Assembly (NCBI GenBank): GCA_048884965.1
Contig: JBHLQH010000008.1
Coordinates: forward strand, 64,197 to 128,196
Reading direction: 5' to 3'
Length of the DNA stretch: 64,000 nt
DNA from: Candidatus Thorarchaeota archaeon
GTDB taxonomy: Archaea > Asgardarchaeota > Thorarchaeia > Thorarchaeales > Thorarchaeaceae
Made by a program: the position numbers and the translations under genes. This document shows positions 4,419 to 63,620 of the stretch, piece after piece. Numbering within the stretch: the stretch's first letter is position 1; each line of letters begins with the position of its first letter. Below the pieces are notes generated by a model, which saw only the letters and a program-made list of their open reading frames with translations, did not search any database and was not told the DNA's origin.

Positions 4419-4526
4419 AGCCCCGTGGTGTAGCGGTCCATCATATCGGGTTTTGGAATCATACAGACTCGTTCTGTATGGTGAGAATCCCCGGTGACCC
4501 AGGTTCGAGTCCTGGCGGGGCTACCA
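4419..4526 (+). tRNA. tRNA-Gln(UUG) with 32-nt intron at 37/38 (4457-4488); CCA encoded
   Basis: Acceptor stem AGCCCCG/CGGGGCT (A1-U72 typical of archaeal tRNA-Gln), T arm CCAGG-TTCGAGT-CCTGG, anticodon TTG at 4453-4455, bulge-helix-bulge plus intron hairpin ATCATACAGA/TCTGTATGGT. Confidence 0.95.
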
Positions 4527-48457: not shown

Positions 48458-48997
48458 CTAGACGCCGTATCCCATCTTTCGCTTGAGGTTGGGGTCTATC
48501 TTATCGAAGACTACCTTGCAGGGTGTTGGGAACTTTGGTGCAGCCTTCTCAAGTGCTTTCATACTTTGCTTGATGAAGGGTGGGTTGGTCCTGATCGTGA
48601 TGATAGCCTGATTCGTGTCAACCCTAGCTGCTGAGCCAATGACTTTGCCCCATGCTCGACGCATACCATCCTGTACACGGTCAGCCCCTGCGCCGGAGAT
48701 CATCTTATTCTCACGGAGATAGTGGTATGGCTTGACACGCACGCGGAGGTGGTAGTTCTTCCTGCCCACGAACTTGGTCATGTGTCTGTTAGAAGCAATA
48801 CGAGCCGCCTCTAGTGCCTGGTTGCGAATCTGACACCTCTCTAGACCAATCAGGGACATCTCTACCTCGAACTTTCCAGCTGTCTCGCCCATGTCAAAGC
48901 TGACTATTCTGCTCGCTGGCTGCCTGTGAATATAGCGTTTCCTCACAAACGGAGGACGATCTTGTTCTCGATAGCATTGTCCTGGACGTTTTCCCAT
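48458..48997 (-). CDS. rpl10e: 50S ribosomal protein uL16 (L10e)
   Basis: RPG.CYR, ALEAARI, RENKMISGAGADRVQDGMRRAWGK. Confidence 0.97.
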   Translation of the reverse strand: MGKRPGQCYREQDRPPFVRKRYIHRQPASRIVSFDMGETAGKFEVEMSLIGLERCQIRNQALEAARIASNRHMTKFVGRKNYHLRVRVKPYHYLRENKMISGAGADRVQDGMRRAWGKVIGSAARVDTNQAIITIRTNPPFIKQSMKALEKAAPKFPTPCKVVFDKIDPNLKRKMGYGV

Positions 48998-49106
48998 AAT
49001 GGTTCACCTGATTGAAATTTGGTCTAAAGCCTGAGCGGCTTAGTCAGAGTGAGCCTTGAGGGTTTGAATAAAAGGATTATGGCGTGTGCCTTTCGAACCA
49101 TGTACA

Positions 49107-50759
49107 CTAGGGTGCTGAGAATCTAACTCGCTCATGGTACTCAAGATTCTCTGGGTCAAAGTATGGTTTCGTCCACTTACTGTCCTTTCTGAGCTTGGTC
49201 TGACCTTGTTTCTTGACCAGCCACTTTCTCTTCTGGTTCCATCTGAATCGATAGTGGTCATAGAGTCGCATCATCTCACAGATGTATGTGTCTGCAACAG
49301 CTGTATTCCCTCGAATAACTAGCATATTCTCATCGTTGTCGTGCGAGCTCGCATTAGAGAAGTTGTTCGAGCCAACGATGACCCAAGGCTCATTCGTCGT
49401 GAAGTCACGAACAATCGTCTTGAGGTGGATGAAGAGATTCCCTTTCTGACCAGCTAATGACTCCTTCACCATCGACTCGAAACCCTTCTTCAAATAGGCA
49501 GCGGCAACGAACTCTCCTCGTCTGTGAATCCCCGTAATCTTACTTTCTGTGTTTTGAAGGCCATACCGAATGATCTCATCATCTTCCTCAGGTTTTAGTG
49601 CTTGAAGCACATCTGGATGCAATGCAAATGCAGTACAGAAGAGAACATCACTCTTTGCATCTTTGAGAATTTCAACTACCTTCTTTGTATCACCGAAGTT
49701 CTCGCGTGGACTGAATATTACCTGTGTTGCAGGATCATTGCCCTTTGCAGGAATTATATTCTCAGACTCGATATAGGAACGTGTTAGACTCAGATTGGAA
49801 CGACAGTCATCCCATAGCTTGTTGAAAAGGGCATGATATTGTTGGGCAAGAGGGGGATCTTCAACAATATGAACGACATTTGCTTGGCGATACACTCCGT
49901 TAAAGGTGAAATTCGCAGTGCCGGTCAAAACGCTTGTAGGGTTCCAAGCATGGTCCTCTGATTCTCTGTTACTTAGCACAATGAATTTCTGATGAAATAT
50001 CTCATTTGTAACGCGACCCCGCTTCACCTCTGCTGGGAGTGATTTGATGCACTTCTCATTCTCATGGGTCTGCTCATCATCCTTCTTATCGTGATAGAGT
50101 ATTCTTAGAGTCACGCCCCGCTCTAGGGCTTTCTTTAGCTCTTTAGCGACCCAGCTCAACTCGATCTCATATATCGCCACATCCAAAGCCCAGTTCTTAT
50201 CAACCGCTTTTTGGATGAAATCCTTGATTGTCACATCCATATTCCGCGCTAACCATAGCTGGGCAAGTTTCCTGAAGGTAGGATGAAGGTCTGTATCCTC
50301 AGGATTGATTCCTGCGAACTTCTTCTGGTATGCTTGGCTCGCAGCTGCTGCTCTGTTGAACACAACTTGATGTATTGTGCCTGTAAGAGATTCCGTCGTG
50401 ATAGCGACGTCTGGACCTTCGGTCATCGTGGGCGATTTGTAATCACCATGCAAGGCATACAGCTTGTAGATGTAATCCTTTCCCGGAGTAACCAGATAGT
50501 CAGACCATCTGAACTTCTGAAGAGGTGCCTTATTCGTTCCAATCGGAGTAAGCTTCTTCCCCTTTTGCTTTGGAAAACGGAGAAGACCTTGAATCCAGCG
50601 AGATACGGAAGCACCTTGTTTCGTCTGGTGTGTTCGCTTGATGGCGAATCCGAGGAAATCCTCACGAAGGCGTTCATCGATATCCATTGCAAGCAAGACA
50701 CCAGTAGCTCCAGCATAGACCTTGAGGGTTATCCCGTTAGCTTGACCTCTATTTCTCAT
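49107..50759 (-). CDS. phospholipase D superfamily protein (two HKD-type motifs)
   Basis: HQKFIVLS..TGTANFT and HLKTIVRD..VGSNNFS..NDENML; N-terminal P.QKFRWSDY domain. Confidence 0.85.
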   Translation of the reverse strand: MRNRGQANGITLKVYAGATGVLLAMDIDERLREDFLGFAIKRTHQTKQGASVSRWIQGLLRFPKQKGKKLTPIGTNKAPLQKFRWSDYLVTPGKDYIYKLYALHGDYKSPTMTEGPDVAITTESLTGTIHQVVFNRAAAASQAYQKKFAGINPEDTDLHPTFRKLAQLWLARNMDVTIKDFIQKAVDKNWALDVAIYEIELSWVAKELKKALERGVTLRILYHDKKDDEQTHENEKCIKSLPAEVKRGRVTNEIFHQKFIVLSNRESEDHAWNPTSVLTGTANFTFNGVYRQANVVHIVEDPPLAQQYHALFNKLWDDCRSNLSLTRSYIESENIIPAKGNDPATQVIFSPRENFGDTKKVVEILKDAKSDVLFCTAFALHPDVLQALKPEEDDEIIRYGLQNTESKITGIHRRGEFVAAAYLKKGFESMVKESLAGQKGNLFIHLKTIVRDFTTNEPWVIVGSNNFSNASSHDNDENMLVIRGNTAVADTYICEMMRLYDHYRFRWNQKRKWLVKKQGQTKLRKDSKWTKPYFDPENLEYHERVRFSAP

Positions 50760-50872
50760 TGTAATGATTGGCCCCTTTACACACGAATATTAGCTATAGA
50801 ATATAGCTACTAGTTAATAAATTGTATATCTAAGTCATTAACCATATCCGAAAGTTGGCAAGAGAGATAGGA

Positions 50873-51289
50873 CTATGGCGTGGGCCAAAGATATCTCAGG
50901 GTGAAGAACGATAGGAATAGACTTAGAGTAAGGATAGACATAAGGAAAGCATCCCGTTTCATATGTGGATCATTTGCATCTTGTCTCATATCATCTTGTA
51001 AAAAAGCCGAGAGAAACGGAAACCAAACAATAGATAGTGGAAATATCAGGAAATCGACACTTCTTGCATCAAGGTAAGGTTCACTAGCACCAAGAGCGAT
51101 GTGCATAGAAAAGATTGCAAAGAACACCGATGACATCGCAATGATAATTATGAGAAAATAGAAAGCAAACCTGATTCTCCACACAGATTGATTCTTCGGT
51201 TCCGGATATCTTTTCTTGAGCAGCAGGTATCCATGTATACCAATTAAGAAAAGAGCACTCATTAGAATCGATACTTCAGCAAAGCCCAC
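50873..51289 (-). CDS. small 4-TM membrane protein
   Basis: 138 aa, four hydrophobic segments; no recognised motif. Confidence 0.65.
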   Translation of the reverse strand: MGFAEVSILMSALFLIGIHGYLLLKKRYPEPKNQSVWRIRFAFYFLIIIIAMSSVFFAIFSMHIALGASEPYLDARSVDFLIFPLSIVWFPFLSAFLQDDMRQDANDPHMKRDAFLMSILTLSLFLSFFTLRYLWPTP

Positions 51290-51450
51290 TTTCTCATCAC
51301 ATGTTCCTTCAGAGAAAATAGTGAGAGAAATGGATTATGGCATTTGACTTTCGAATGAAACGCGAGAAGGGGAGATTATATTTTCACATTCGAGAGAATC
51401 TATGAGAGTAGTATGTTCACATTGAGGCTAGGAACTCGATTCCGTCCTCA

Positions 51451-51538
51451 TACTGGCTGTGCGTACTGCGATGATCGGGGTTTTAGATAAGAACCGAGGG
51501 CAGGCTTAGCTTGTCCTCACCACCTCGGTGATGGCGAT
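51451..51538. repeat. dispersed structured repeat, copy 1
   Basis: 51471-51538 aligns without gaps to 55293-55360 (53/68 by hand); 51451-51492 aligns to 59890-59931 (30/42). Confidence 0.85.
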
Positions 51539-51540
51539 GT

Positions 51541-51585
51541 AAACAAAAAAGAGCAGAGAGCTGAATCCTTGCCATTACAGCTCTC
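51541..51585 (-). terminator. hairpin + U-tract terminator of 51608-52438
   Basis: GAGAGCTG-14 nt-CAGCTCTC, then TGCTCTTTTTTGTTT on the minus strand. Confidence 0.6.
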
Positions 51586-51607
51586 AAATATCACACATGG
51601 AACTATC

Positions 51608-52438
51608 CTATTGATAGTAGATATTCTTCGTTAGGGTTGTGGTTGCAATGTGTTCAAGGTACCAGACATCAGCAGTGTTAGGTCTGTATTGGACACTAAC
51701 CTTCCCCCATCCGACCTTTGCAGTGATTGTTATGTAATAGCTAGTATATCCACTTTCGCAGGTCCACTGCATCTCACTGACTCCTCCAGCAACGGTGACT
51801 GATGGTTTGATTCCGGTAACACTGCTCCAGCCATAATCCCATCTAACTTTTGTAGAATAGTCAGTTCCACCATTAGCATCAGGATCCCAGACATTTCTTG
51901 ATTCACCAATGTAATCAAAGAATGTCTGCATGACACCATCGACAATAACACCAACTACGAGACCAGTTCCTACGCTAAGTGGAGATAATGCAAGACCAGT
52001 GACAATTCCAAGTGTTTCACTAAGGAGTTGACAACCTGCCTGAGTTTCTGCCGCTGCATCTGCAGGATGGATTCGTTTATTGAGGTCATTCCCTTCAGCA
52101 ATATGAACCGTGTTCAAGTCACCATTGACTTGAGTAGTTCTGTAGGGATCCAGCCACCAACCAGCTCCAACAATTGGTTTCATTTCTACAACAATCTCTG
52201 TAAAGACGATCTTGTATGAACCCTTAGTATCAGCTGCTATCGCGATAGACAGATCCTGCTGTCGCAAATGTCCAAAAATTGTTCGTACTGCTTCAACTTC
52301 TACATCTAGTTTTGCCGTACCATAAGTATTGTCTGAGTATGTTGCCGCCTGAACGGATGGCAATAAGATGAAGCAAGAGAAGGCTATTGCTACCACTGAA
52401 AGAGTTACAATTCTTAGTTTGAACCTTTTTGTATTCAT
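51608..52438 (-). CDS. secreted hypothetical protein with central Gly-rich hydrophobic segment
   Basis: Sec signal peptide (MNTKRFKLR-hydrophobic-VQA|A), GGAGG RBS, internal LLSETLGIVTGLALSPLSVGTGLVVGVIVDGVM. Confidence 0.75.
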   Translation of the reverse strand: MNTKRFKLRIVTLSVVAIAFSCFILLPSVQAATYSDNTYGTAKLDVEVEAVRTIFGHLRQQDLSIAIAADTKGSYKIVFTEIVVEMKPIVGAGWWLDPYRTTQVNGDLNTVHIAEGNDLNKRIHPADAAAETQAGCQLLSETLGIVTGLALSPLSVGTGLVVGVIVDGVMQTFFDYIGESRNVWDPDANGGTDYSTKVRWDYGWSSVTGIKPSVTVAGGVSEMQWTCESGYTSYYITITAKVGWGKVSVQYRPNTADVWYLEHIATTTLTKNIYYQ

Positions 52439-52566
52439 CCTTTCAAATCCTCCAATTGAGGTATGAAGTACATATCCTGTATACTAATAATAGGACGACT
52501 TAGTTTGGAAACCAGTTTTCCTCAAAGAGGGCTTTTAGAAGACCTCCCGCTCTTAGTCAGAATGGG

Positions 52567-55200
52567 TTATGTATGGAGAAGATTCTGCAATCTCTGGTAG
52601 GATTCCACTCCTTCAGGTCTAAGGTAGAACACAGAACGAGGTGCAGTCTCAATAAACTCATAGCGTTGTTCAATCAATCCTGCTTCAACAAGAGTTTCCA
52701 AATGATGGTTAAGTCGTCCCTTGGTCACTCCAAGTATAGATTGAAGTTCAGAGAATGGGATACGATAATGAATCAATAGAGTCTTCATGATAGCTAAGCG
52801 AATTGGATTCAGAAGTTCTTTGAGTGCTAATACCGCATCTGAAAGATCAATTTCAGACAGAGTTGATTCTGCAGAATCGAGAATCTCTTTGAAATCGATA
52901 TTTTTGAGTCGAGTTTCTACAATGCATTGGTCAAATACTTCAGGAATTATCTCTTGAATTGGTTTCTCAGGTAATATCCCTAACACTGATTCCGATGAAG
53001 TATTCTGCCAAATTGGGAGCTTCAACCGGAGGGTTTGTGTGAGATAGGTGAGCTTCTCCGTGGCAAGGAAAGATTGACCTTTAAAGAGGTAGAAAAATAC
53101 CAATGAATCAATACGTTCGTAAATTAGGTTAATATCATTGATTCGGGTCCTTCGAGTGGTTTGAACTTCGTTGAGTACATCTTTTCCAAGACTAGAGATT
53201 GTTTCAGTAATGGATTCGATTATCTTTACGTCGTATCTGTCACTATTCGGAAATTGACACTGGAATATCAGGCCTTTGCTCTGTGAAAACACTAGTAGCA
53301 TGAGGGGGATTTCTTCTGTGATTGCAGGAAGTACTATGTCTTGGTTGTATACAAGCTGCTTTCGCGTGCGTTCTAGCTGCATAAGATTGATTCGCTCTGT
53401 CATGTTGAGAAATCCTTCTCCGGTTTCTGTGAGTCTATCAATATTGTCAAGAACTGAATCATACTGATTCGATATACTAATTGCCAATGACAGAAGACCA
53501 GTTTCTTTCGCAATAGATTGTGCTCTTTGTAGCAGATTGAGAGCTTGATCGATGTCTAATTCAATTAGAGCCAGCTTGGCCTGAAGGAAAATGGTTTTTG
53601 CAAGAATGTTAGTTGAGTTCTGCTTCTCAGCAATATCAGCAAGCTGAGTCAGCACTATTCCAATCTCTTTCTGAACCTGCTCATTCCAAGAACTAAGTAA
53701 TTCAACCAGAAGTAGATCACATAGCTGAAGTGCGGCAAAGACTGTGAGAGTATGGTCAATCATCTTCTCCTTCATTATTGTAGAGAACATCTCTTGTGCA
53801 AGCATCTTGTCCTTTAGTCGATGCCCAGTAGCCAAGAGCATCGCATCTGCGATTCGAGCTCTTAGATTGATGAAGGGATTCTCTTGTTCGTTTGCTAGCT
53901 CCTTCAAACGCTTGTTATGTCCTTCAGCAGCAATCCTTCTTCCCTCTTGTCGTAGATTCAGAGTGATTAGTGAAAGAAGTGATTCAGATATGTCAATAGG
54001 ATTCGATATCTCTTCTCGAATCACTAGGGCTCTCTCGTAGGAGTCCGATGCTTCCTTGAAAGCCCCCTTATCTTGGTGAACAAGTCCTATGGTGTTCAGG
54101 ATGTGTGCAATGAAGAACTTATTCCCTATTTCGGTCATTATGGACAGACCGCGATGTAAATAGTCAAGTGCTTGATCCAATTGACCCTTTCTTTGGTAGA
54201 CATGCCCAACGTTGTGTAGGAGTATTGCAGATAGCTGGTGGTTGGAGAGCTCTTCAGTGATTGATAAGCCCTGTTGATAGTGAACGAGAGCAAGACCAAG
54301 CTCTCCCAAGTCCTCCTCAATCATCCCGATATTGTTCAAGATGAATGCTCTGTGTGGCTTATTCTCTAGCTCTTCAGAGATTGCTAATGCTCGTCTGTAA
54401 TGCTCTAGAGCCCTGATGGAATCACCCATCTGTCTATACACATTGCCAAGATTATTCAGAGCGATCAAGGTGTCGTGAAGATTTTCTCCTAGATTCGCCT
54501 TTTCTAAACACTCTTGATAATACTCGGCTGCAAGTTCAAGATTCCCTTTATCTAAATAGGTGACACCAAGACCATTCAATGCAGAGATGATATGCTGCTG
54601 TAACTTGTTCTTCTCAGCCATTCGAAGAGCAAACCTGTAGTATTCCAGAGCTTGGTCATATTCACCTCGATGCCAAGCGTTGGTACCCAGATTGATATAG
54701 ATCTTTATCAAGAGAGGCTCATTTCTGATCTCCTTGACAATTGCAAGTCCCTCTTCCAATGCTACAAGAGCTTGCTCGAACTCCGTCTTACGGTTCCAAT
54801 AGATACCCTTGAGGAGGAGGAATGTCGCGTAGCGTTCGTCTACCTGCTCTTCGCTCTCTTCTATGTCTTTGAAGTAGGCTTCAATTTCATTTAGAATATC
54901 AAAGCTCTCTTGATATTTCCCTAATTTGTAGAAGCACTCTGCTCTAATCAGCTGTGCGTCAATATAGGCTAAGGATGAAGTAGGATAGAGGGTATCAAAG
55001 ATTATGTTGGTTAATGCAAATGCCTCTTTGTAATTACCCTTTTGTAAGAGAATTGAAGACCTTAGAAGAACTATCTCAATCTGATATTCTTCCAAGAGAT
55101 CGGTATCTTTCTCCAAGCAATCAAGTTCATGGAGTGCCTTATCCAGCTCACCATCTTTTGATAGGCTCAATACTCTCTCAAACTGTGTTTTGGTCCCCAA
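52567..55200 (-). CDS. TPR-repeat protein with longin-like domain and C-terminal ArsR-type winged helix
   Basis: ~10 TPRs (NNLGNVY..G...AL..Y..AL); PLMLLVF..GLIF..LVFFYLFKGQS segment; wHTH NPIRLAIM.TL..F.EL...LG.TKG.L.HHL..L.EAGLI. Probable TTG start at 55200 (ORF open to 55293). Confidence 0.85.
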   Translation of the reverse strand: MGTKTQFERVLSLSKDGELDKALHELDCLEKDTDLLEEYQIEIVLLRSSILLQKGNYKEAFALTNIIFDTLYPTSSLAYIDAQLIRAECFYKLGKYQESFDILNEIEAYFKDIEESEEQVDERYATFLLLKGIYWNRKTEFEQALVALEEGLAIVKEIRNEPLLIKIYINLGTNAWHRGEYDQALEYYRFALRMAEKNKLQQHIISALNGLGVTYLDKGNLELAAEYYQECLEKANLGENLHDTLIALNNLGNVYRQMGDSIRALEHYRRALAISEELENKPHRAFILNNIGMIEEDLGELGLALVHYQQGLSITEELSNHQLSAILLHNVGHVYQRKGQLDQALDYLHRGLSIMTEIGNKFFIAHILNTIGLVHQDKGAFKEASDSYERALVIREEISNPIDISESLLSLITLNLRQEGRRIAAEGHNKRLKELANEQENPFINLRARIADAMLLATGHRLKDKMLAQEMFSTIMKEKMIDHTLTVFAALQLCDLLLVELLSSWNEQVQKEIGIVLTQLADIAEKQNSTNILAKTIFLQAKLALIELDIDQALNLLQRAQSIAKETGLLSLAISISNQYDSVLDNIDRLTETGEGFLNMTERINLMQLERTRKQLVYNQDIVLPAITEEIPLMLLVFSQSKGLIFQCQFPNSDRYDVKIIESITETISSLGKDVLNEVQTTRRTRINDINLIYERIDSLVFFYLFKGQSFLATEKLTYLTQTLRLKLPIWQNTSSESVLGILPEKPIQEIIPEVFDQCIVETRLKNIDFKEILDSAESTLSEIDLSDAVLALKELLNPIRLAIMKTLLIHYRIPFSELQSILGVTKGRLNHHLETLVEAGLIEQRYEFIETAPRSVFYLRPEGVESYQRLQNLLHT

Positions 55201-55292
55201 GTGATATCCACCACGACTCAAGTGTGTTACATTTTGAAAATTAATAAATCTAGATATAGTAGCGATGAATTCAAGATGTGATATGCAACTCA

Positions 55293-55360
55293 ATGATTGG
55301 AGTTTTAGACAAAAACTGAGGGCAAGCTAGTCTTGCAGTCACAATCTCGGTGATGGCAAT
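55293..55360. repeat. dispersed structured repeat, copy 2
   Basis: ATGATTGGAGTTTTAGACAAAAACTGAGGGCAAGCTAGTCTTGCAGTCACAATCTCGGTGATGGCAAT; 53/68 to copy 1. Confidence 0.85.
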
Positions 55361-55386
55361 ACGGACTAGTGAGGGGGGTAGTTTCC

Positions 55387-55423
55387 AAAAAAAGGTGCAG
55401 AGTGTCAAATCGTTCCCTGCACC
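55387..55423 (-). terminator. hairpin + U-tract terminator of 55444-55956
   Basis: GGTGCAG-16 nt-CTGCACC directly followed by T7 on the minus strand. Confidence 0.65.
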
Positions 55424-55443
55424 AGCTTCAGAATGAGCTCAGC

Positions 55444-55956
55444 TCACGGTATGATATTATTGATTAGCGTTTCAGGATAGCCTCCACTAACCGCACAATC
55501 CCTGAACCAGTCGCCTGATTGGTAAGCTATGTTGGGATATACTACATAGTGACTTGTCCATGGCCAAGGACTCTGCCAAATGGTAGATCCGCTACGAATC
55601 AAGTACATCTGCACCTGCCCGTTCATTGCCGCCCAACTACCATCCTCATATCCAAGATAGGTCCAGTGTTCTAGTTTGTACCAAGTAGTGCTAATGAGTG
55701 TGCGAATTAATCGACCTCCTAGCTCACGGCACTTGTAGGTCTGTTTCAGCGTTGCTTCACTGTGAAGCCAATATGCATTAGACCCTGGATAGTCAGGGAA
55801 TCCGTAGTCATATGCATAGTCGTTTGCTGTATACTTCGGGTAGCTGTACTCGTACCACACCTCGCCGTATGCTGCAGTTTGTGCAGGCATAGCTGCAAGA
55901 ACGACCAGAAAGGTCATCATGCAAGCGAGAATTAATGCTTTTTTCCCAATTTCCAT
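55444..55956 (-). CDS. secreted Tyr/Trp-rich hypothetical protein
   Basis: Start refined to ATG 55956 after GGAGG; signal peptide MEIGKKALILACMMTFLVVLAAMPAQTAA; aromatic-rich mature part. Confidence 0.75.
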   Translation of the reverse strand: MEIGKKALILACMMTFLVVLAAMPAQTAAYGEVWYEYSYPKYTANDYAYDYGFPDYPGSNAYWLHSEATLKQTYKCRELGGRLIRTLISTTWYKLEHWTYLGYEDGSWAAMNGQVQMYLIRSGSTIWQSPWPWTSHYVVYPNIAYQSGDWFRDCAVSGGYPETLINNIIP

Positions 55957-56036
55957 TCTACGATCTCCTCCAAGTTCAAGATGAAGGTCTCCCCCGCTCA
56001 ACATATGCTCTCAACAATGACTGCTACATCCACCAA

Positions 56037-56152
56037 TATAAGGGAAAGAAAACTGCTTCAAAATGCATTCGTGAGTGCTAAAATGAAATTCATATCTATA
56101 ATCTCAAACAAAGTGTCGGGAGAAATACGAACACGTTGTTAACATTTGGCCA
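56037..56152 (-). promoter_or_regulatory. three-block promoter module, copy 1 (upstream of 55444-55956)
   Basis: Blocks 56037-56070, 56100-56124 and 56138-56152 match 58245-58360 at a constant 2208-bp offset; ends in TATA-like CTTATA on the minus strand. Confidence 0.8.
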
Positions 56153-56255
56153 AATCAAGATATCGAAAGTAGTCTGTCATGTCAGCGTCTTTCGAAGCAT
56201 TCAAGGACCCAAAATTCCAAAGTATAATAATGTCTAGTCAAGCTATATGAAAGCC

Positions 56256-56297
56256 AAAAAAAGAACGAGAGGATGATTTCACGTTCAACCATCCTCT
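56256..56297 (-). terminator. hairpin + U-tract terminator of the subtilase gene
   Basis: AGAGGATG-14 nt-CATCCTCT, then CGTTCTTTTTTT on the minus strand. Confidence 0.6.
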
Positions 56298-56306
56298 ATT
56301 AGAATA

Positions 56307-58181
56307 CTAATCATATGGTCCAGGCGGAGGTCTAGGAATTTCTGGGGGGAGGGGATTAGGTTCACCATCATATCCCCATATCCGCAGGTTATAATCAAGA
56401 TCGAACTGTGAAGAGTAGAACTTTATCCTGACATAGTAGTATCCATCCCTCATGATTTCATAATTCAGATAGACGTCATTCCCAAAGTAGGAATGAAATG
56501 ACATGACTGACCCAGAGGAGATGAAAATAGAAACCCAAACCGACATCTCATGGTCGTCTTGGATATACTGGACCTTCAGAATATCGCCCCACTTCAAATA
56601 GGTCTTATACCAATCCTCCGTGTCCCTAAAGCCGATGGGTTCATCATACCGCCAATACTCAGCTCCTCCGATTGAATATACAAGCGGCGCAGCTGAAAGA
56701 GAATCTGCCATGTCGCGATGATAGAATGTCATCACATCTTGAGCGTCTATTCTTCCGCATCCGTAGGTATTGTCCCTCACGCCGGGATTGGAATCATCCG
56801 GCATATCCGTTGCAGCACCCATCAGAAGTTTCTTGATAAGGGGTTGTCCATCAGAATCTAGCTGCTTTAGAGTGATGTCATAGTCGAGCCACAAAGCACA
56901 GAATCCTGCAACAAATGCTGTCGCTGCTGAGGTTGCGCTGAATGCAGAATACTGCGTAGTAGATACTGGGTCTGGGGTTGGTAAATCCCACGCAGGAGCA
57001 AGAATATCTGGTTTGATGCGTCCATCTAAGCAGGGTCCACGACCAGAGCCTAGTAATTGATTTGGCTGATGCATCCAGATAGCCCATCCATCTTCATACA
57101 CGGTCGGATCATATGCTCCACCAACTGTGATTACATACTTACCTGTACCAGGCGTAGTAACGGTCCCTGCACCTTCGCCTCCATTATTTCCAGCAGCACA
57201 TACAACAACTAGCCTATGTTCTGAAACTAGAGTGTCTGCAAGCATGGCCAAGGTATCATATGCCCCAAATGCAGGTGCGTAATTAGCTGTATACGGAGAG
57301 AAACCAAATGAACAGCTGACAATCTCAATTCCGTAGATATCCTTGTTATCAGCTATCCAGTTGAATCCTTCCATGACATCTTCCAAAGTGCCACTGCCTA
57401 CAGAGTCAAGGACCCTCACACCCACAAGTGCAGCACCTGGTGCCACTCCTGATTTAGTTGGATCAACTGATCCAGTTCCTGCTGCAATTCCAGCAGCTTT
57501 TGATCCATGGTAAGTTCCAATATCAAAGTTGTCACTTGTGCAGATTGCGGGTTTAATAGAGGTGATGACATCATCATCTTCACCACCACCACCGCCACCA
57601 GTTCCAACACAATCTATCCATCCAATTACCTTCGCATCAGGCATGTCTTGATGAATTGTACTTATCCCAGTATCAACAATTGCAATCACGATGTCATCTG
57701 GTGTGTACTGATCTGGATCTCCATCAAGATCACCATCCAATCCGGGATAGTTTGTAGCCAGCCAATTAACATGTGTTGCTTCACGGGGATTTCCAGAACA
57801 AGCATAAACCCGTTGGCTCCCATCATCTATTCTGAGTATGAAAGGCAATGTAATGAGTTCTGAAATTCGATTCAGAGGTACTTCTAAAACAACCCCACCA
57901 ATCGTATCAAAAATATCGAGAACTCTAACACCTTGCACCAATGCAGGTAGATAATCTATACCTGAACGATAGTCGGTATCATATACTCCCACTACTTTCA
58001 CGATTTCTTCTGATTTTGTTTCAGATATTTCTTTAAAATCGAACCCCGTCTTGGATGTAAGTTTGGTTTCGATCCCAAGTGGATCTACAATGCCAACTTG
58101 TATCATTGATGGAAGAACAAGGATAATTAGCAAGATGAAACTCAGAGGAATGACCATATGCTTCATTTTCATATTTTTCAT
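56307..58181 (-). CDS. secreted S8 (subtilisin-like) serine peptidase with C-terminal beta domain
   Basis: Signal peptide, I9-like prodomain, IAIVDTG, YHGSKAAG, AAGN, KPDILAP, SATSAATA (catalytic Ser). Confidence 0.9.
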   Translation of the reverse strand: MKNMKMKHMVIPLSFILLIILVLPSMIQVGIVDPLGIETKLTSKTGFDFKEISETKSEEIVKVVGVYDTDYRSGIDYLPALVQGVRVLDIFDTIGGVVLEVPLNRISELITLPFILRIDDGSQRVYACSGNPREATHVNWLATNYPGLDGDLDGDPDQYTPDDIVIAIVDTGISTIHQDMPDAKVIGWIDCVGTGGGGGGEDDDVITSIKPAICTSDNFDIGTYHGSKAAGIAAGTGSVDPTKSGVAPGAALVGVRVLDSVGSGTLEDVMEGFNWIADNKDIYGIEIVSCSFGFSPYTANYAPAFGAYDTLAMLADTLVSEHRLVVVCAAGNNGGEGAGTVTTPGTGKYVITVGGAYDPTVYEDGWAIWMHQPNQLLGSGRGPCLDGRIKPDILAPAWDLPTPDPVSTTQYSAFSATSAATAFVAGFCALWLDYDITLKQLDSDGQPLIKKLLMGAATDMPDDSNPGVRDNTYGCGRIDAQDVMTFYHRDMADSLSAAPLVYSIGGAEYWRYDEPIGFRDTEDWYKTYLKWGDILKVQYIQDDHEMSVWVSIFISSGSVMSFHSYFGNDVYLNYEIMRDGYYYVRIKFYSSQFDLDYNLRIWGYDGEPNPLPPEIPRPPPGPYD

Positions 58182-58244
58182 TTTCCCCCATATCCCCTCC
58201 TAATTCTTCACATGCCTCTCACAATTACTTATGGTTTCTATTAT

Positions 58245-58360
58245 TATAAGGGAAACAAAACTGCTTCAAAATGCATTCTAATGAATTAGTTTCTGGGTCA
58301 GTCCCTAAATCCCAAACAAAGTGTCGGGAGAATTCAAAAATTGGGGTTAACATTTGGCCA
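58245..58360 (-). promoter_or_regulatory. three-block promoter module, copy 2 (upstream of subtilase)
   Basis: TATAAGGGAAACAAAACTGCTTCAAAATGCATTC / AATCCCAAACAAAGTGTCGGGAGAA / GTTAACATTTGGCCA, spaced as in copy 1. Confidence 0.8.
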
Positions 58361-58367
58361 GGTCGTA

Positions 58368-59816
58368 TTATTCGAGGTGTGCAGTAATATCAACATCTGA
58401 TGGGGAAATCAAAAATCCCTCATCGCCATACTCGAATCCTGCCATGATGTCCTTGTTCGGTCTTCCACCCCGATACGTGATAGCAAGGATGGATCTTACA
58501 GACTTCACACCCTTCATTTCTCTCACCGTGTTGAGAAACCATAGATAGTCTGTTAGATGTGCCTGTGGCGTTTCCAACCAGAATATCATCCCGCGATGAG
58601 ACTTGAAGTATAGATAGACCAGCGGGAAGCTAGCCAATATGTTCAGAAGTCTGTCGGATACTGTTGCATTACAGATGACCTCGACAGGAATATCATAGTG
58701 AAAGCCTAGCCTTGCGAACCAGAGGAATGGAGTGAGGATACCTCGGTCGATGAGCAGATTCCTTCGTTCAGATATGGTTCGCAATGGCATGTCAAGTCCT
58801 TGAGCTTCTAGGTGTGTCTTCGCCTCACTTGGCTTCATCCGTGGATTCATACAGAGGATCTCCTCAAGATGAAAATCAACATAGGTCAGATCCTCCATGA
58901 ATTCATTTCGCTCTGTTGCTCCGATAAATGGGCCACCTGAATCTTTTGCATCAAGATTCCTCTCAGTGATGCATTTTGGTAAGAGCCATGCACCTTCCTG
59001 CATTAGGCTTGGATTCATGAGTCTACCACTCCCCTCATAGAGATGCAGTGATGAGTAGCTGAAGAACTCATCAGACATCTCTTTTATCCCAGATTTGAAT
59101 TCGCGTAGGTTCTCAGTGGAGTTCGGTAGCAGGAAGGCAGAAACAATGGTCTCACTGTTCGGATACCTATGGATTCGCGATGTGAACGGGAAGGCTTGAA
59201 CGCAGGATTCTATCTGCATCCATGATTCATGATCATTCAACTCAAAGAGGAAGTATATTGGCTGCAATCCAAAGCCAGTGACGTTGTTGTGACCAAGTAT
59301 CCTTGCCCAGTGATGTGATTCTAGCTTCTTGTACGCCTCGTATACTGTACTTCTGTGCATGCTCAACTCTAAGGATGCATCCCTGAAGGTTCTCATGGGA
59401 TTCCTTGCGAAATACTTCAAGACTTCTGCCTCAGTGCCCACTGGAACTCTATGGGGACGCTTGTGTCCAAGCACGTCATAGATCGCTGAGTCTAGTATCT
59501 TTGCGTTCACGACATCATGCTTCATGAGATATCTAAGATTCTCAATGACACGGTCAATCATCTCCTGAGACCAAGGCTCATAGAGCGGGATGAAGGTACT
59601 CATGACTGACTCTGCATCCTTATGCAGCTCTTCGCCTAGTTTATGCACTTGTTCCAGTGAGAGCAGATTCGTACTAAGGGCAATCTTCAATTTTATGAGA
59701 TCTAAATAGTACTGCGAATCCGGTTCCGCACCTACAAGTAGCTCTTCATAGGGTGTGTGTATCCTAGAAAGAATCTCGGTGCGACGTGCACCTGATTCAT
59801 TTTGAGGCGATGTCAT
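58368..59816 (-). CDS. large transcriptional regulator with duplicated HTH + Lrp/AsnC-like modules
   Basis: Two HTHs (VLKYFARNP..F..AS.EL.MHRSTV...YKKLE; IL..NPR...SE....L......RTISERR..L.DRGIL), each followed by an AsnC-like alpha/beta region. Confidence 0.7.
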   Translation of the reverse strand: MTSPQNESGARRTEILSRIHTPYEELLVGAEPDSQYYLDLIKLKIALSTNLLSLEQVHKLGEELHKDAESVMSTFIPLYEPWSQEMIDRVIENLRYLMKHDVVNAKILDSAIYDVLGHKRPHRVPVGTEAEVLKYFARNPMRTFRDASLELSMHRSTVYEAYKKLESHHWARILGHNNVTGFGLQPIYFLFELNDHESWMQIESCVQAFPFTSRIHRYPNSETIVSAFLLPNSTENLREFKSGIKEMSDEFFSYSSLHLYEGSGRLMNPSLMQEGAWLLPKCITERNLDAKDSGGPFIGATERNEFMEDLTYVDFHLEEILCMNPRMKPSEAKTHLEAQGLDMPLRTISERRNLLIDRGILTPFLWFARLGFHYDIPVEVICNATVSDRLLNILASFPLVYLYFKSHRGMIFWLETPQAHLTDYLWFLNTVREMKGVKSVRSILAITYRGGRPNKDIMAGFEYGDEGFLISPSDVDITAHLE

Positions 59817-59889
59817 ATCGTATCTTCCTATACCACGTGAGGTGAGGATTATTTTGAACTAATAAAATGTTTATCATTTGAGGAGTCGT

Positions 59890-59931
59890 TACTGGTCGTG
59901 TGCTGTGAGATGATCGGGGCTATAGGCAAAA
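59890..59931. repeat. dispersed structured repeat, copy 3 (partial)
   Basis: TACTGGTCGTGTGCTGTGAGATGATCGGGGCTATAGGCAAAA; 30/42 ungapped to 51451-51492. Confidence 0.6.
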
Positions 59932-59935
59932 CTAT

Positions 59936-60352
59936 CTACTCTGATGATGTATTTGCCTCATCTTCAAGTGAATCTGTATGCTGCTGTAGACCAAGTGTGT
60001 CAGCATCCATGATAGCATCGACAAAGTGACAGATGAAAGCAGCCAGTGCAAATCCAATAGCTTCGACAACGAGTATAGGCGAGAGAAAGATTATGTAGCT
60101 TGCACCAATTACGAGCGACATCGACTCAATAACGGCTATCGATATTGCAGCTATTCTTGGATGATTAACATAGAAGGTCCAATAGGGCTCTTGTCTTCTT
60201 CTGATACGCTGTTTGATAATGATTCCAGCTAATAGTGGTAAAAAGAATCCAACAAGGACCATTATCACTTGTAGAGAGTGAATCGATTGCACGTTTTCCA
60301 CCCTCCCCCGCCTAACTTCTCTTTGGTTAACCAAGAGAAGTGATGGATACAT
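59936..60352 (-). CDS. small 3-TM membrane protein
   Basis: Three hydrophobic segments; true start probably a GTG near 60302/60293 after GGGAGG. Confidence 0.6.
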   Translation of the reverse strand: MYPSLLLVNQREVRRGRVENVQSIHSLQVIMVLVGFFLPLLAGIIIKQRIRRRQEPYWTFYVNHPRIAAISIAVIESMSLVIGASYIIFLSPILVVEAIGFALAAFICHFVDAIMDADTLGLQQHTDSLEDEANTSSE

Positions 60353-60594: not shown

Positions 60595-60849
60595 TTGTGT
60601 TCGCTTCCTGAACACCTACTTGAGGAGGATAAATCGATAATGCTTGAATTGCTACTGAATGACAAAGAGTACTTGATACTTGCATCTATCTCAATTGTAG
60701 TCTGTTTTATTGTGATGGCTCTCTTTGGGGACCCGAATCATTGGACTGCATTCATATTCCTTATGCTCGTTTATGGACTCGTTCTTATCGGGGGCAGGAT
60801 TGGATACAACTATCGATTAGATTATGGTGATGCGCCTTATTCTGATTAG
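60595..60849 (+). CDS. small 2-TM membrane protein
   Basis: Two hydrophobic helices; probable start ATG 60640 after GAGGAGG. Confidence 0.55.
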   Translation: MCSLPEHLLEEDKSIMLELLLNDKEYLILASISIVVCFIVMALFGDPNHWTAFIFLMLVYGLVLIGGRIGYNYRLDYGDAPYSD

Positions 60850-61568
60850 TATCCTCTTGCCAGACGAAGGATTATCTCGAACAATGCAATGTAGAAGTTC
60901 CCGCTTGGTGGAGCAATGAAGACTCCTGTATCATGGAAATATGGTCGAAGGACCCATGCCAACTGAGTTCCTACGAAGCCTAGAACGATTGTGCCAATGA
61001 AGGTAGCCATGATCCACCTCTTGTTCTCCCCATGGATTCGGCTAAATCCCTGCCAGAGATAGCTAACAGCGGTGAGGGCTGAGAGAGCGAAGAATATGAC
61101 ATTCAGGAGGATAAAGAATCCATAGGTCGCGAATGTCCGCTCAGGGGTGGTGAGTGTGAAGAATAGGGTGACAGGGAGAAAGGCAATCAGCATGGTTGTG
61201 AGGACACAGACACTTACCATGAACAAGACTGTCAGCTGTCTAAGGCTTAGGTCACCTCCAAGTATCCCGTTCAAGACATAATAGGTCGGGAGGGTGACAT
61301 AGAGTGCGATAAGGAGAAGAAGAGGAATCTTCAGTGCATCGAAGAGTATCTGTATGCCACCTGCATAGAAACCCATCACTGCCCCGTACAATGCTCCGAA
61401 GGCGAGAATTGCGATGGTCGATACAAGATAGTACTCTTTGAGATTCGTTTCTTCCTTGATGTTAGAAAAGACCTTCTCACGATCCCGGATGAATAGACTC
61501 AACGTATCGAGAAGCATCTGAACCTCCACGTAATCATTCCTCCTTTTGCTTTCGATTGAAATAAACAA
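60846..61568 (-). CDS. polytopic membrane protein (Yip1-like fold)
   Basis: YGAVMG..K.PLL..LP..Y, P..LFF, VG.QLAW.LRP.F motifs; 5-6 TM. Start probably 61529 or 61517. Confidence 0.7.
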   Translation of the reverse strand: MFISIESKRRNDYVEVQMLLDTLSLFIRDREKVFSNIKEETNLKEYYLVSTIAILAFGALYGAVMGFYAGGIQILFDALKIPLLLLIALYVTLPTYYVLNGILGGDLSLRQLTVLFMVSVCVLTTMLIAFLPVTLFFTLTTPERTFATYGFFILLNVIFFALSALTAVSYLWQGFSRIHGENKRWIMATFIGTIVLGFVGTQLAWVLRPYFHDTGVFIAPPSGNFYIALFEIILRLARGY

Positions 61569-61712
61569 TATACTATTTGATTAGTTTCATATAAAGGCTA
61601 CAACACACGCTACAAGCAACTATTTTTGGGAAACAGAAGATGGTGTATTAGCGCGCATTAATTAGGCAGATATGCAATACTGGGGCAGGTGTCTTGCACC
61701 GGAGGGAAACGT

Positions 61713-62126
61713 GTGTCAAAAGAACTGATAGATAAGCTAAATGAAGCGATATCACGTGAGATTCAGGTTAGTATCCAATACATGTGGCAACATGTCAGGA
61801 TCTACGGATTCGACCACTTGGCTATCGCCGAGGAATTGAAGAAGATTGCAGTTGAAGAGATGAAACATGCAGAGGCTATTGCCGAGCGAGTTGACTACCT
61901 TGGAGGCATTCCGACTACCAAGCCTGCAGAAATCAAGGTGGGAAACAAACCCCACGAGATGATTGAATTTGATAAGGAAGCTGAAGAAGAAGCCATAGAG
62001 ATGTACAAGAAAATCATCCAGATGGCGGAAGCTGAGAAGGACTATGTCACTAGAGAGATGTTTGAAGAAATCCTCGCAGATGAGGAAGATCATCATAACG
62101 TCTTCAGGACTCTGCTTGAGAAGTAG
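61713..62126 (+). CDS. ferritin-like / bacterioferritin-type di-iron protein
   Basis: E..V..QY, EEMKHAE, E..AI..Y, DEEDH; start refined to GTG 61713 after GGAGG. Confidence 0.88.
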   Translation: MSKELIDKLNEAISREIQVSIQYMWQHVRIYGFDHLAIAEELKKIAVEEMKHAEAIAERVDYLGGIPTTKPAEIKVGNKPHEMIEFDKEAEEEAIEMYKKIIQMAEAEKDYVTREMFEEILADEEDHHNVFRTLLEK

Positions 62127-62144
62127 TAATTCTTCAGGATAGGA

Positions 62145-62169
62145 CAAGAGCTCAATAAATGAGCTCTTG
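62145..62169. terminator. perfect 10-bp hairpin between convergent genes
   Basis: CAAGAGCTCA-ATAAA-TGAGCTCTTG between the ferritin-like and VOC stop codons. Confidence 0.55.
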
Positions 62170-62191
62170 ATAGTTTTTGGTGGGCATTGAT

Positions 62192-62584
62192 TCAATCTGA
62201 CTTGACTCGTGGATCTGCAACGAGTTGGATAGGATTACCCTCAGTATCTTCGATATTGAAGTAGGAAACCATGTCAGGAATATCAACAATATCACTCGGA
62301 GAGAGTCCCTTGCTTTCGAAATACTCCCTCGTGGTAGCTATATCCTCTACATTTATCGTCAGTAGACCAGAGCCTTTCTTTATATCTCCCTCTTGGAGAT
62401 TGATACCAAGCCTAGCGCCCTTCACAGGGAGCTCGAACTCAGCCCAGCCCACTTCAGCTCCACCATCCCAGACCTTTTCGAGGCCCATGACCTCCTCATA
62501 GAACTTCTTTGCACGATCGAAGTCCTTGACATGATACTGGAAATAGATAGAATCAGTCTTGTATGGAAATGGGTATTTAGTCAT
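62192..62584 (-). CDS. VOC/glyoxalase family protein
   Basis: VKDFDRAKKFYEEVMGL..WAEF..F..EDTEGNPIQL. Confidence 0.88.
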   Translation of the reverse strand: MTKYPFPYKTDSIYFQYHVKDFDRAKKFYEEVMGLEKVWDGGAEVGWAEFELPVKGARLGINLQEGDIKKGSGLLTINVEDIATTREYFESKGLSPSDIVDIPDMVSYFNIEDTEGNPIQLVADPRVKSD

Positions 62585-62654: not shown

Positions 62655-63620
62655 CTATACATCAAGCACAGCTATGATCATCATGGGAAAGATGATGGTT
62701 GCATCACCGATGACAGACTCGAAGGAAGCCTCTGTCTGTACCTTCTGCCAAGATACTCCTTCTTCCAGTGGAGCACCGCCAAGGCTGCCACCTTCAGGTC
62801 GGTCTAGGGTTATCTGGACAGCTAAATCAAGCCCTCCTCGAAGAATAGTACTTCCCATAGTGAAGTGCTTTGTAAGACCCCCACCAAGCATGATAGCCCC
62901 GGTTCTTTTCGACTCAGTGACCATCTCTCCAAGTATCCGGAGGTCCTTCACAAAGTCCAAGGACAGCTTGGCTGACGTACTATAGGTGTACAAGTGGAAC
63001 CCCAGCATCGAATCCATAAGGCCAGGAGAGAATATAGGGACTCCTTTCAATGACGCCTGTCTAACAATGGACGCGTTATCTTCCACGGTGTCACCAAGCT
63101 TCTTGATGAACTCGCTAGGTGACAGTGAGATCCGTTCGTGCTCTGTCAATGAGTCAATAAACTCGTAGATTCTTGATTCAAAGATTTCAAAGTCGCGCTC
63201 TTGCACATACAGATCTGCAATCCTTCCCATTCCAGCCTCTCGAAGCTCAGAGTCCTCCTTATGCCTAGGTACTCGGTAGTGAGACCCTCCATAGGCCTCA
63301 ACGAGGTCGTGAACGATATTCGCACCACTGGTGATGATGACATCGATGTAGCCTTCTTGGACCAAGTATGATATGACCTTCCTCAAGCCACCAGGGACCA
63401 TCGGGCCAGATAATGCCAGATAGGTTAGGCAATCGGGATCATTGAACATCTTGGAAACAATTGTAGTAGCCCTACCAAGACGACCTGCTCCTAGCACTCC
63501 GACATCTCTCATAGAGCTTAGAAGTGCGGACACGGTCTTCGCATTTTCGGGGTCAATGTGTTCCACTTTGTCCACATCAGTCACCGAGCATCGAACCATG
63601 CTACTATCGAGATAAGTCAT
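62655..63620 (-). CDS. dys: deoxyhypusine synthase
   Basis: SG.MVPGGLR, TSGANIVHD, GGGLTKH, GGSLGGAPLEEGVSWQK. Confidence 0.92.
   Translation of the reverse strand: MTYLDSSMVRCSVTDVDKVEHIDPENAKTVSALLSSMRDVGVLGAGRLGRATTIVSKMFNDPDCLTYLALSGPMVPGGLRKVISYLVQEGYIDVIITSGANIVHDLVEAYGGSHYRVPRHKEDSELREAGMGRIADLYVQERDFEIFESRIYEFIDSLTEHERISLSPSEFIKKLGDTVEDNASIVRQASLKGVPIFSPGLMDSMLGFHLYTYSTSAKLSLDFVKDLRILGEMVTESKRTGAIMLGGGLTKHFTMGSTILRGGLDLAVQITLDRPEGGSLGGAPLEEGVSWQKVQTEASFESVIGDATIIFPMMIIAVLDV

Follow-up and report, generated by a model that had tools for sequence, protein, structure and literature searches.

We analysed a window of 64,000 nt from the genome of a Candidatus Thorarchaeota archaeon (GenBank assembly GCA_048884965.1, contig JBHLQH010000008.1, positions 64,197 to 128,196; C8:64197-128196 in our contig numbering), taken from an assembly of 4.09 Mb in 99 contigs that was 95.7% complete. 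Between the ribosomal protein gene rpl10e and a ferritin-like gene, this window carried an island of accessory genes, and between the genes lay three copies of a repeated element, ~200 nt long when complete and containing a 17-nt core (O). A second, shorter motif (m17) lay at the rpl10e end of the island (Table 1; all positions are those of the window). Every gene from 49107 to 60352 was on the minus strand. An initial annotation of the sequence, which had proposed a tandem array of integron-like cassettes at this site, had given the gene order and the single-strand layout, and both were borne out by the list of open reading frames, Pfam and the translations.

Using rpl10e as an anchor, we compared gene neighbourhoods in 20 relatives. 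Orthologues of rpl10e were recovered from 20 of the 21 relatives searched, at 67-87% identity within the same family and 49-58% or less outside it. The left flank was syntenic (SRP54, RNA methyltransferases, a DRG-type GTPase and rpl10e), as was the right flank (ferritin, a VOC protein, dys and onward); the names ferritin, VOC and dys come from reading the translations. The interval between the flanks was ~0.2 kb (empty) in genomes G010 and G012, 0.9-1.3 kb in G005, G008 and G009, 3 kb in G007, 6.5 kb in G011 and more than 11 kb, filled with unrelated genes, in G006, and it measured 12.7 kb from rpl10e start to ferritin start in the present genome. The interval from rpl10e to ferritin and dys, which the initial annotation had named as a hotspot, is thus truly hypervariable among relatives, ranging from ~0.2 to 12.7 kb with unrelated content. 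The GC content of the island was 0.40-0.45 compared with 0.47-0.52 in the flanks. In three further genomes (G004, G003 and G001; loci L011, L020 and L021) contigs stopped ~50-620 nt from rpl10e on the island side. Congener contigs that end at rpl10e fit with strain heterogeneity or repeats breaking assemblies at the hotspot.

Table 1. Features of the rpl10e-ferritin interval and its borders in the window
Feature	Position	Strand	Evidence and remarks
rpl10e (ribosomal protein L10e/L16)	48458-48997	-	Left anchor of variable interval; PF00252, E = 3.8e-27
m17 copy a (AAAGGATTATGGCGTGT)	49071-49087	+	rpl10e promoter edge
PLD-family protein, 550 aa	49107-50759	-	Nuclease-type, DrmC-like, accessory cargo; PF13091, E = 1.3e-26; PADLOC DrmC, E = 1.1e-12
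m17 copy b (TAGGACTATGGCGTGGG)	50868-50884	+	Between PLD and 138-aa genes; repeat search
138-aa membrane protein	50873-51289	-	Cargo; open reading frame, hydrophobic segments in translation
m17 copy c (ATGGATTATGGCATTTG)	51330-51346	+	Just before promoter of element copy 1; 28 nt at 86% to copy a
Element copy 1	51350-51542	+	Most intact; covariance model R2, 96.6 bits, E = 1.9e-17; nhmmer model positions 5-205 of 214
Copy 1, TATA-like promoter	~51372-51385	+	Followed by ATGAGAG start region
Copy 1, hairpin H0	51423-51450	+	Followed by spacer
Copy 1, core O	51470-51486	+	GATGATCGGGGTTTTAG
Copy 1, hairpin H2	51496-51518	+	Followed by hairpin H1
Copy 1, ATG-TAA	51537-51542	+	At FAM1 start position
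276-aa signal-peptide protein	51608-52438	-	Cargo; N-terminus MNTKRFKLRIVTLSVVAIAFSCFILLPSVQA; hairpin and T-run past stop codon
TPR and winged-helix protein, at most 908 aa	52567-55293	-	TPR_12, E = 5.8e-56; HTH_34, E = 2.9e-10
Element copy 2	55292-55361	+	Core O (55292-55308, 3 mismatches) and 3' arm only; R2, 81.1 bits
186-aa Tyr/Trp-rich signal-peptide protein	55444-56004	-	Cargo; Y+W 15%; terminator-like hairpin and T-run
Promoter module copy 2 (TGGCCAAATGTTAAC ... CTCCCGACACTTTGTTTG ... GAATGCATTTTGAAGCAGTTTT ... TTATA)	56005-56160	-	Aligned with copy upstream of S8 and with G003 site
S8 subtilase, 624 aa	56307-58181	-	Cargo; signal peptide; PF00082, E = 1.8e-36; terminator-like site 56297-56268
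Promoter module copy 1	58182-58367	-	Between HTH regulator and S8; alignment
482-aa HTH protein	58368-59816	-	Weak, sub-threshold IclR-type HTH (Pfam); likely regulator of promoter modules
Element copy 3	59872-59925	+	H0 remnant, spacer, core O (59909-59925, 2 mismatches; GATGATCGGGGCTATAG)
Second 138-aa membrane protein	59936-60352	-	Cargo distal to element copy 3; open reading frame and translation
240-aa multi-pass membrane protein	60846-61568	-	Last island gene before conserved flank; translation
Ferritin-like gene	61689-62126	+	Start of conserved right flank; translation, flank synteny in relatives
VOC gene	62192-62584		Right flank; flank synteny in relatives
321-aa dys gene	62655-63620		Right flank; flank synteny in relatives

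A promoter-leader element beside rpl10e

The initial annotation had described a direct repeat cutting out two units of 3.8 and 4.6 kb, and this arrangement was confirmed: the three copies were intergenic and co-oriented, with core-to-core distances of 3822 and 4617 bp. Copies 1 and 2 had ~68-88 nt in common at 78% identity (repeat search and MAFFT), a similarity that blastn-short failed to detect. Identity between these two copies was 78% from O onward and ~35% (chance level) before it, the nhmmer alignment of copy 2 began at model position 117, and copy 2 had lost the promoter, H0, the spacer and the ATG, so that its left edge of similarity fell at O. The right edge of copy 3 lay at O, which there abuts the stop codon of the next gene. 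Copy 3 and copy 1 shared ~40 nt (27/36 ungapped). Profile models scored copy 3 weakly, with E = 3.1 in a first covariance model (R1) and values below threshold in both covariance models. Nevertheless, its core was the sole other match to the copy 1 core with two or fewer mismatches in the whole genome on both strands, against a chance expectation that we estimate at ~6e-4, and its local alignment score with copy 1 was reached by 1 of 5000 shuffles and 15 of 20,000 random genome windows. We conclude that copy 3 is a real copy despite its weak model score. Guide-like copies of the core were not found elsewhere in the genome at two or fewer mismatches, and profile searches of the whole 4.09-Mb genome returned these three copies and none elsewhere. 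In a tree of elements copies 1 and 2 were sisters, and the three copies in the window are decayed paralogues.

Model R1 was built from copies 1 and 2 together with a copy beside rpl10e in a congener; it found further copies in relatives, which led to an improved model (R2). The complete element, ~200 nt long, combines an archaeal promoter with a three-hairpin leader (H0, H2 and H1) and the 17-nt core. In a 13-copy alignment, 89.8% of cells in the hairpins could pair, compared with 44-52% when partners were slid, and compensatory changes were present in 12 of 20 pairs, a value reached by none of 500 shuffles. Single-sequence folding gave z-scores of only -0.5 to -2.1, which are not significant, and the structure is visible by comparative analysis alone. 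By our count ~18 cells held G-U pairs and ~7 held A-C; since G-U cells outnumber A-C cells, the strand in the sense of a gene that we call FAM1 is favoured as the transcribed one. The sequence ATGAAGAC at the end of the element is the start of FAM1, a conserved gene of ~90 aa on the opposite strand to the window genes in several relatives, with the protein pattern MKTK.N.S.KG...EGFSTY...GQKAEIQE...FL..TGR. Because FAM1 starts where the element ends, the element is the region upstream of FAM1, read on the plus strand of the window and away from rpl10e. A TATA-like box was conserved ~75 nt further upstream (GGNGNTTATATTTC in the genus of the window, ACGAGAATAAAA in others), and a ATGAGAGAG motif lay at the distance expected for a transcription start. 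FAM1 searches did not find the gene in the genome of the window, and it was intact after only 9 of ~50 copies. A FAM1 homologue was also encoded on a 73.6-kb ENA contig.

The repeat is therefore not a bare junction, being a promoter with a structured leader that lies on the opposite strand to the window genes and natively heads FAM1. It had no match in Rfam, either in the window, where the only match was a tRNA (4419-4523), or around the copy in genome G018, and it is an uncatalogued structured RNA specific to one Thorarchaeota family. That tRNA spans 105 nt, was missed by ARAGORN and probably contains an intron. Several other identities for the repeat were considered and rejected: an origin as a tRNA or att fragment, as there is no tRNA near the locus; a box C/D small RNA, as on direct reading the boxes were neither canonical nor conserved; and the upstream region of a single orthologous gene, as the copy in G006 precedes an unrelated 467-aa gene. 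Long open reading frames of the FAM1 family running through the element were spurious extensions, the real FAM1 beginning at ATGAAGAC.

Of 86 genomes in the family, 33 had the element by model R2, compared with none of 125 sampled genomes from 26 other Asgard families. The core had no matches in viral collections, and a search of metagenomes for the core pattern gave at least 120 matching stretches, of which the covariance model picked up nothing among the 80 loci listed. We mapped the contexts of ~30 copies. Nearly all lay within the interval from rpl10e to ferritin, VOC and dys and all of these pointed away from rpl10e, the first copy usually ~170 nt from the rpl10e start, and many contigs had two or three co-oriented copies 0.7-5 kb apart. 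Blocks of genes between the copies were shuffled among relatives. Writing E for the element and f plus a number for gene families, the orders were rpl10e, E f24, E f60, E ferritin in G052; rpl10e f13 f18, E f38, E f24, ferritin in G067; E f59 f13 f18, E f60 f50 and onward in G044; f18, E f51 f52 f38, E f59, ferritin in G066; E f26, E f13 f18 in G065; and E f24, E f26 f13 f18 in G063. Among the cargo of relatives were an ABC ATPase and its partner protein, MFS transporters, proteins of the LRR, beta-helix and TPR types, and many unknowns. Copies clustered first by genus in the tree of elements and, inside a genus, by their downstream genes; what lay upstream of them varied. The comparison of related genomes that the initial annotation had put forward as a check thus came out in its favour, with cassette content and order varying among relatives and homology edges falling inside the element.

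A few copies lay outside the hotspot, near a type I restriction-modification system, a large helicase, an EVE-domain protein and an NrdD gene. In G009, copies on C40 (L091) and C51 (L090) had as neighbours an operon for type I restriction-modification, a helicase-like protein of 1337 aa and a fragment resembling BsaWI. These surroundings suggest an association of copies outside the hotspot with defence islands.

Every relative inspected had the motif m17 beside rpl10e, G010 and G012 with their empty sites among them; in these two the conserved promoter-edge motif read AAAGGATTATGGCGTG. Its three copies in the window had one orientation and stood upstream, in gene sense, of rpl10e, the PLD gene and the 138-aa gene. 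In one genus, g6, it was inside the 3' arm of the element, ~35 nt after the core, and formed the left edge of the f13-f18 unit; in the genus of the window it was separate from the element. The motif would be a second junction motif, flanking the PLD and 138-aa genes nearest rpl10e.

Joints between gene blocks and a probable mode of island growth

To place the joints, we used pairwise BLASTN of oriented loci carrying orthologous units in genus g6. Homology started 43-44 nt into the element for the f24 unit (G052 and G067), 32-33 nt for the f60 unit (G052 and G044) and 28-34 nt for the f59 unit (G066 and G044), and for the f38 unit (G066 and G067) it ended 73-83 nt into the next element. These joints fell in or at a segment of ~45 nt that was 92-97% identical between copies, compared with 71-79% for the genes. 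Two types of edge recurred: unrelated DNA followed by core and 3' arm (copy 3 of G052, copy 2 of G066 and copy 2 of the window), and 5' arm followed by core and unrelated DNA (copy 1 of G052 and copy 3 of the window). Cuts in many other copies lay elsewhere: just past H0 or H1, at the ATG, ~13 codons into FAM1 or inside H0. Joints are therefore enriched at the core yet not uniformly precise.

As had been stated initially, the window contained no integrase, and none of five searched families was clear in the genome. PF00589 (which would include an Xer-type protein), PF00239, Cas1 and Y1_Tnp had no match in this 95.7%-complete genome, and PF07282 (the TnpB zinc-ribbon model) gave a sub-threshold match only; controls for the family searches were positive in 6-14 of 14 reference genomes, that for PF00589 in all 14. 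Recombinases were absent from the flanks, which consist of housekeeping genes, and from the immediate neighbourhood of every copy examined, those outside the hotspot included, and Pfam, PHROGs and PADLOC searches of the unit genes examined turned up no integrase or remnant of one. The expectation that further copies would lie next to a recombinase was not borne out: this genome had no copies elsewhere, and those examined in relatives had no adjoining recombinase.

One copy was situated on what appears to be a discrete insertion. In G018 (C30, L094:7784-12178), a module of element, FAM1, f22, f29 and an HTH/HNH gene formed a 4.2-kb insertion between 170-nt direct repeats that were 96% identical, and since it is flanked by repeats in this way, the element can ride on mobile DNA. 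The end of the 170-nt repeat resembled a tRNA T-arm, acceptor stem and CCA, with no full tRNA called. The f22 protein had AEP primase motifs (weak PriS match only), and the sole lead for f29 (565 aa) was to TGT/DpdA-like proteins, with a protein atlas score of 0.85; neither FAM1 nor f29 matched anything in PDB, Pfam, PHROGs or PADLOC. The module had no match to known defence systems beyond its HNH domain, and it is a compact integrative element or a defence island without a recognisable integrase. The hotspot copies of the FAM1 module in G006, G069 and G046 had no direct repeats around them.

Taking these observations together, we consider it on balance probable, with moderate confidence, that 49.1-61.6 kb is this genome's version of a family-wide island in which a promoter-leader element joints the gene blocks through recombination without a dedicated integrase. 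Of the integron-like cassette array proposed initially, the hotspot, the element at the joints and the shuffled blocks are retained, while the ragged edges and the lack of attC sites and of a recombinase do not fit it. New blocks would join when a copy already resident recombines, in or near the core, with one carried by incoming or sister DNA; joining at the core would give tandem accretion, and unequal exchange could then reshuffle the blocks. Short-homology or homologous recombination followed by deletion and decay would be favoured over a dedicated integrase, since edges are often ragged and a recombinase is undetectable, and copies on incoming DNA such as the FAM1 module possibly take part in the exchange. 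The array in the window is old and decaying. As copy 2 consists of core and 3' arm and copy 3 of 5' part and core, the 4617-bp unit between them looks circularly permuted: the order within 55292-59925 is core, 3' arm, 186-aa gene, S8, regulator, 5' part and core, which looks like the form expected of a circle of element and cargo opened at the core.

Several points weigh against this account. All cargo in the window is antisense to the element, whereas cargo in genus g6 mostly follows it in sense, and PLD-type cargo occurs elsewhere in other genomes without any element. Recombination at the core is something we infer from comparative breakpoints only, and edges drawn from BLAST and HMM alignments are approximate; since truncated copies without a core escape detection, edge positions are also biased to the conserved segment. 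Junctions of unrelated DNA, core and arm are not possible by simple homologous exchange between two full elements, and therefore need secondary sites or later deletions. Finally, all genomes were metagenome-assembled and species representatives, with rpl10e at 80-87% amino acid identity within the genus, and because such representatives lie far apart the order of events is unreadable.

Some junctions join the core to unrelated DNA, and for that reason a dedicated enzyme remains a serious rival, though we judge it unlikely. The island would then be a true site-specific cassette system, in which an unrecognised recombinase cuts and joins at O, the hairpins serve as its binding arms, and units circularise and reinsert. 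The edges in the window lie exactly at the two ends of O, so that copy 2 reads B-O-P' and copy 3 P-O-B', copies 1 and 3 of G052 and the G066 copy show the same edge types, and conservation of the core, which has hairpins on both sides, far exceeds that of the genes around it; the 4.2-kb insertion of G018 (element, FAM1, PrimPol, f29 and HNH) likewise has the element travelling on mobile DNA. Against this, many copies are cut outside O, no recombinase adjoins any copy examined and the five searched families are not present in the genome, the empty sites of G010 and G012 have no core-like sequence, and the insertion in G018 uses a tRNA-like repeat rather than O.

The structure of the element also allows a reading in which recombination plays no part, and which we regard as slightly less likely still: the copies would be paralogous regulatory units (a promoter with a riboregulator-like leader, or small RNA genes) that were duplicated locally, were retained to control expression and occupy block borders simply because of their intergenic position. 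Conserved promoters, compensatory changes in the hairpins and G-U pairs favouring one transcribed strand are all what a regulator would show, many unrelated genes in genus g6 start ~0-70 nt past the 3' end of an element as if driven by it, each copy in the window is paired head to head with the beginning of a minus-strand operon, an arrangement resembling a divergent promoter region, and the sister relationship of copies 1 and 2 fits local duplication. Such duplication leaves unexplained the restriction of copies, in nearly all genomes, to a single interval, and why homology of orthologous units stops in the core; moreover, most copies are truncated, many of them (copies 2 and 3 included) with the promoter or the leader missing, and FAM1, the native downstream gene, was lost after most copies. 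A regulatory role may hold in addition to recombination. That the three copies are chance similarities in AT-rich intergenic DNA and delimit nothing can be regarded as refuted. The 18-kb region does contain at least 60 families of weak direct repeats by repeat search, copy 3 taken alone is below both covariance-model thresholds, and the folding z-scores are low; however, copies 1 and 2 are matched at E = 1e-14 to 1e-17 by a model dominated by other genomes, the 17-mer core of copy 3 has no counterpart in the genome other than that of copy 1, and 32 other genomes have homologous copies at this locus.

The genomes of Asgard archaea are large and gene-rich and contain much DNA of horizontal origin, and the route by which these archaea capture it is poorly known. 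Beyond this one island, it is possible, and here we are tentative, that Thorarchaeota arrays are built and reshuffled without a known integrase via promoter-proximal transcribed sequences, the core of the leader in this case and the promoter edge of rpl10e elsewhere. If true, such a route would amount to a gene-capture platform of a new kind, in the prokaryotes most closely related to eukaryotes. The locus is a concrete and testable site, offering an rpl10e anchor, an element of ~200 nt, a 17-nt core and dozens of natural variants with swapped blocks. Should an enzyme or an RNA-linked mechanism be found, it would be a new gene-capture system; should exchange be purely by homology, a conserved promoter-leader can serve as a portable recombination handle.

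Cargo genes and promoter modules

Several island genes had few or no counterparts among relatives. Orthologues of the PLD gene were present in only 4 of 85 family genomes and in none of the genus, and the gene was at a different location in G011. The first of the 138-aa membrane proteins (50873-51289) and the 240-aa membrane protein had no family match in library searches of the window proteins. For the TPR protein, Pfam returned TPR and winged-helix domains only; its true start is uncertain, there being no ATG in the first 60 codons of the 908-aa frame, and its best relative was 32% identical, in G004 on another contig, with no close orthologue. Hairpins followed by T-runs past the secreted genes, as previously noted, were found for the 276-aa, 186-aa and S8 genes. 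Involvement of the cargo in inter-microbial competition, raised in the initial annotation, is speculative.

The promoter module that had been reported in duplicate was also confirmed by alignment, as ~150 nt upstream of S8 and of the 186-aa gene, with a 34-nt repeat shared between the two copies at 97% (repeat search). An orthologue of the 482-aa regulator in the congener G003 (G003_C22; 70% nucleotide identity over 1526 nt) was likewise flanked by two element copies, and directly after it (L084:10080-10260) was the promoter module, driving a different gene of 269 aa. The regulator with its modules is a self-contained unit, as had been suggested initially, and regulator and module recur between two element copies in G003 with another driven gene. 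The ~150-nt module is likely to be the operator and promoter of the 482-aa regulator.

At the right border, a minus-strand open reading frame of 147 aa (61752-62195) is very likely a spurious antisense frame of the plus-strand ferritin-like gene, and its apparent conservation in G005 is that of the ferritin gene.

Comparison with known systems

The core is not a site of the XerA/dif type. Such a site has 28 bp, with two inverted 11-bp arms around a spacer of 6-8 bp, and is accompanied by an Xer recombinase; on direct reading the core has only a 9-nt palindrome (CGATGATCG), and the genome has no PF00589 protein. Minimal mobile elements of Neisseria and capsule or O-antigen loci are moved by homologous recombination through conserved flanks. 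Like them, the island holds alternative gene sets between housekeeping flanks and would exchange them without a dedicated recombinase; unlike it, those loci are without an internal repeated junction element and build no tandem arrays.

Asgard metagenome-assembled genomes carry integrase-less clusters of attC sites (CALINs), and most archaeal integrons found are CALINs (Ghaly et al. 2022, PMC9668308). The island resembles integron arrays in having co-oriented structured repeats of ~60-200 nt that separate unrelated accessory genes at a single place in the chromosome, with content and order that vary among relatives, unit edges inside the repeat and often no integrase nearby. The genome has neither IntI nor a tyrosine recombinase, but CALINs also lack intI, and this absence would not by itself rule out an integron-type array. 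The junction was correctly described as non-attC: searching the copies and 49.0-61.7 kb on both strands with regular expressions (RYYYAAC/GTTRRRY) gave no R''...R' pairs 30-130 nt apart, and instead of the one long bulged hairpin of attC the element has three short hairpins, each separate, and the core between them is unpaired. In contrast to integrons, the repeat here carries a promoter and a gene start, its edges are often imprecise, and the cargo has its own promoters and regulators.

In additive flexible genomic islands, or tandem accretion, integrative elements stack at a single att site, for instance the 3' end of a tRNA or tmRNA gene. Our island differs from these in that what is repeated is the 5', promoter-proximal portion of a leader plus small protein gene rather than a tRNA 3' end, in having no integrase, and in that its repeats have diverged (78%) instead of being identical cores. 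As in tandem accretion, there is a fixed anchor, additions each leave a partial copy of the target, older units decay and the cargo differs per strain; three co-oriented partial copies were found here, and 32 other genomes had 1-3 copies per locus, nearly all of them by rpl10e.

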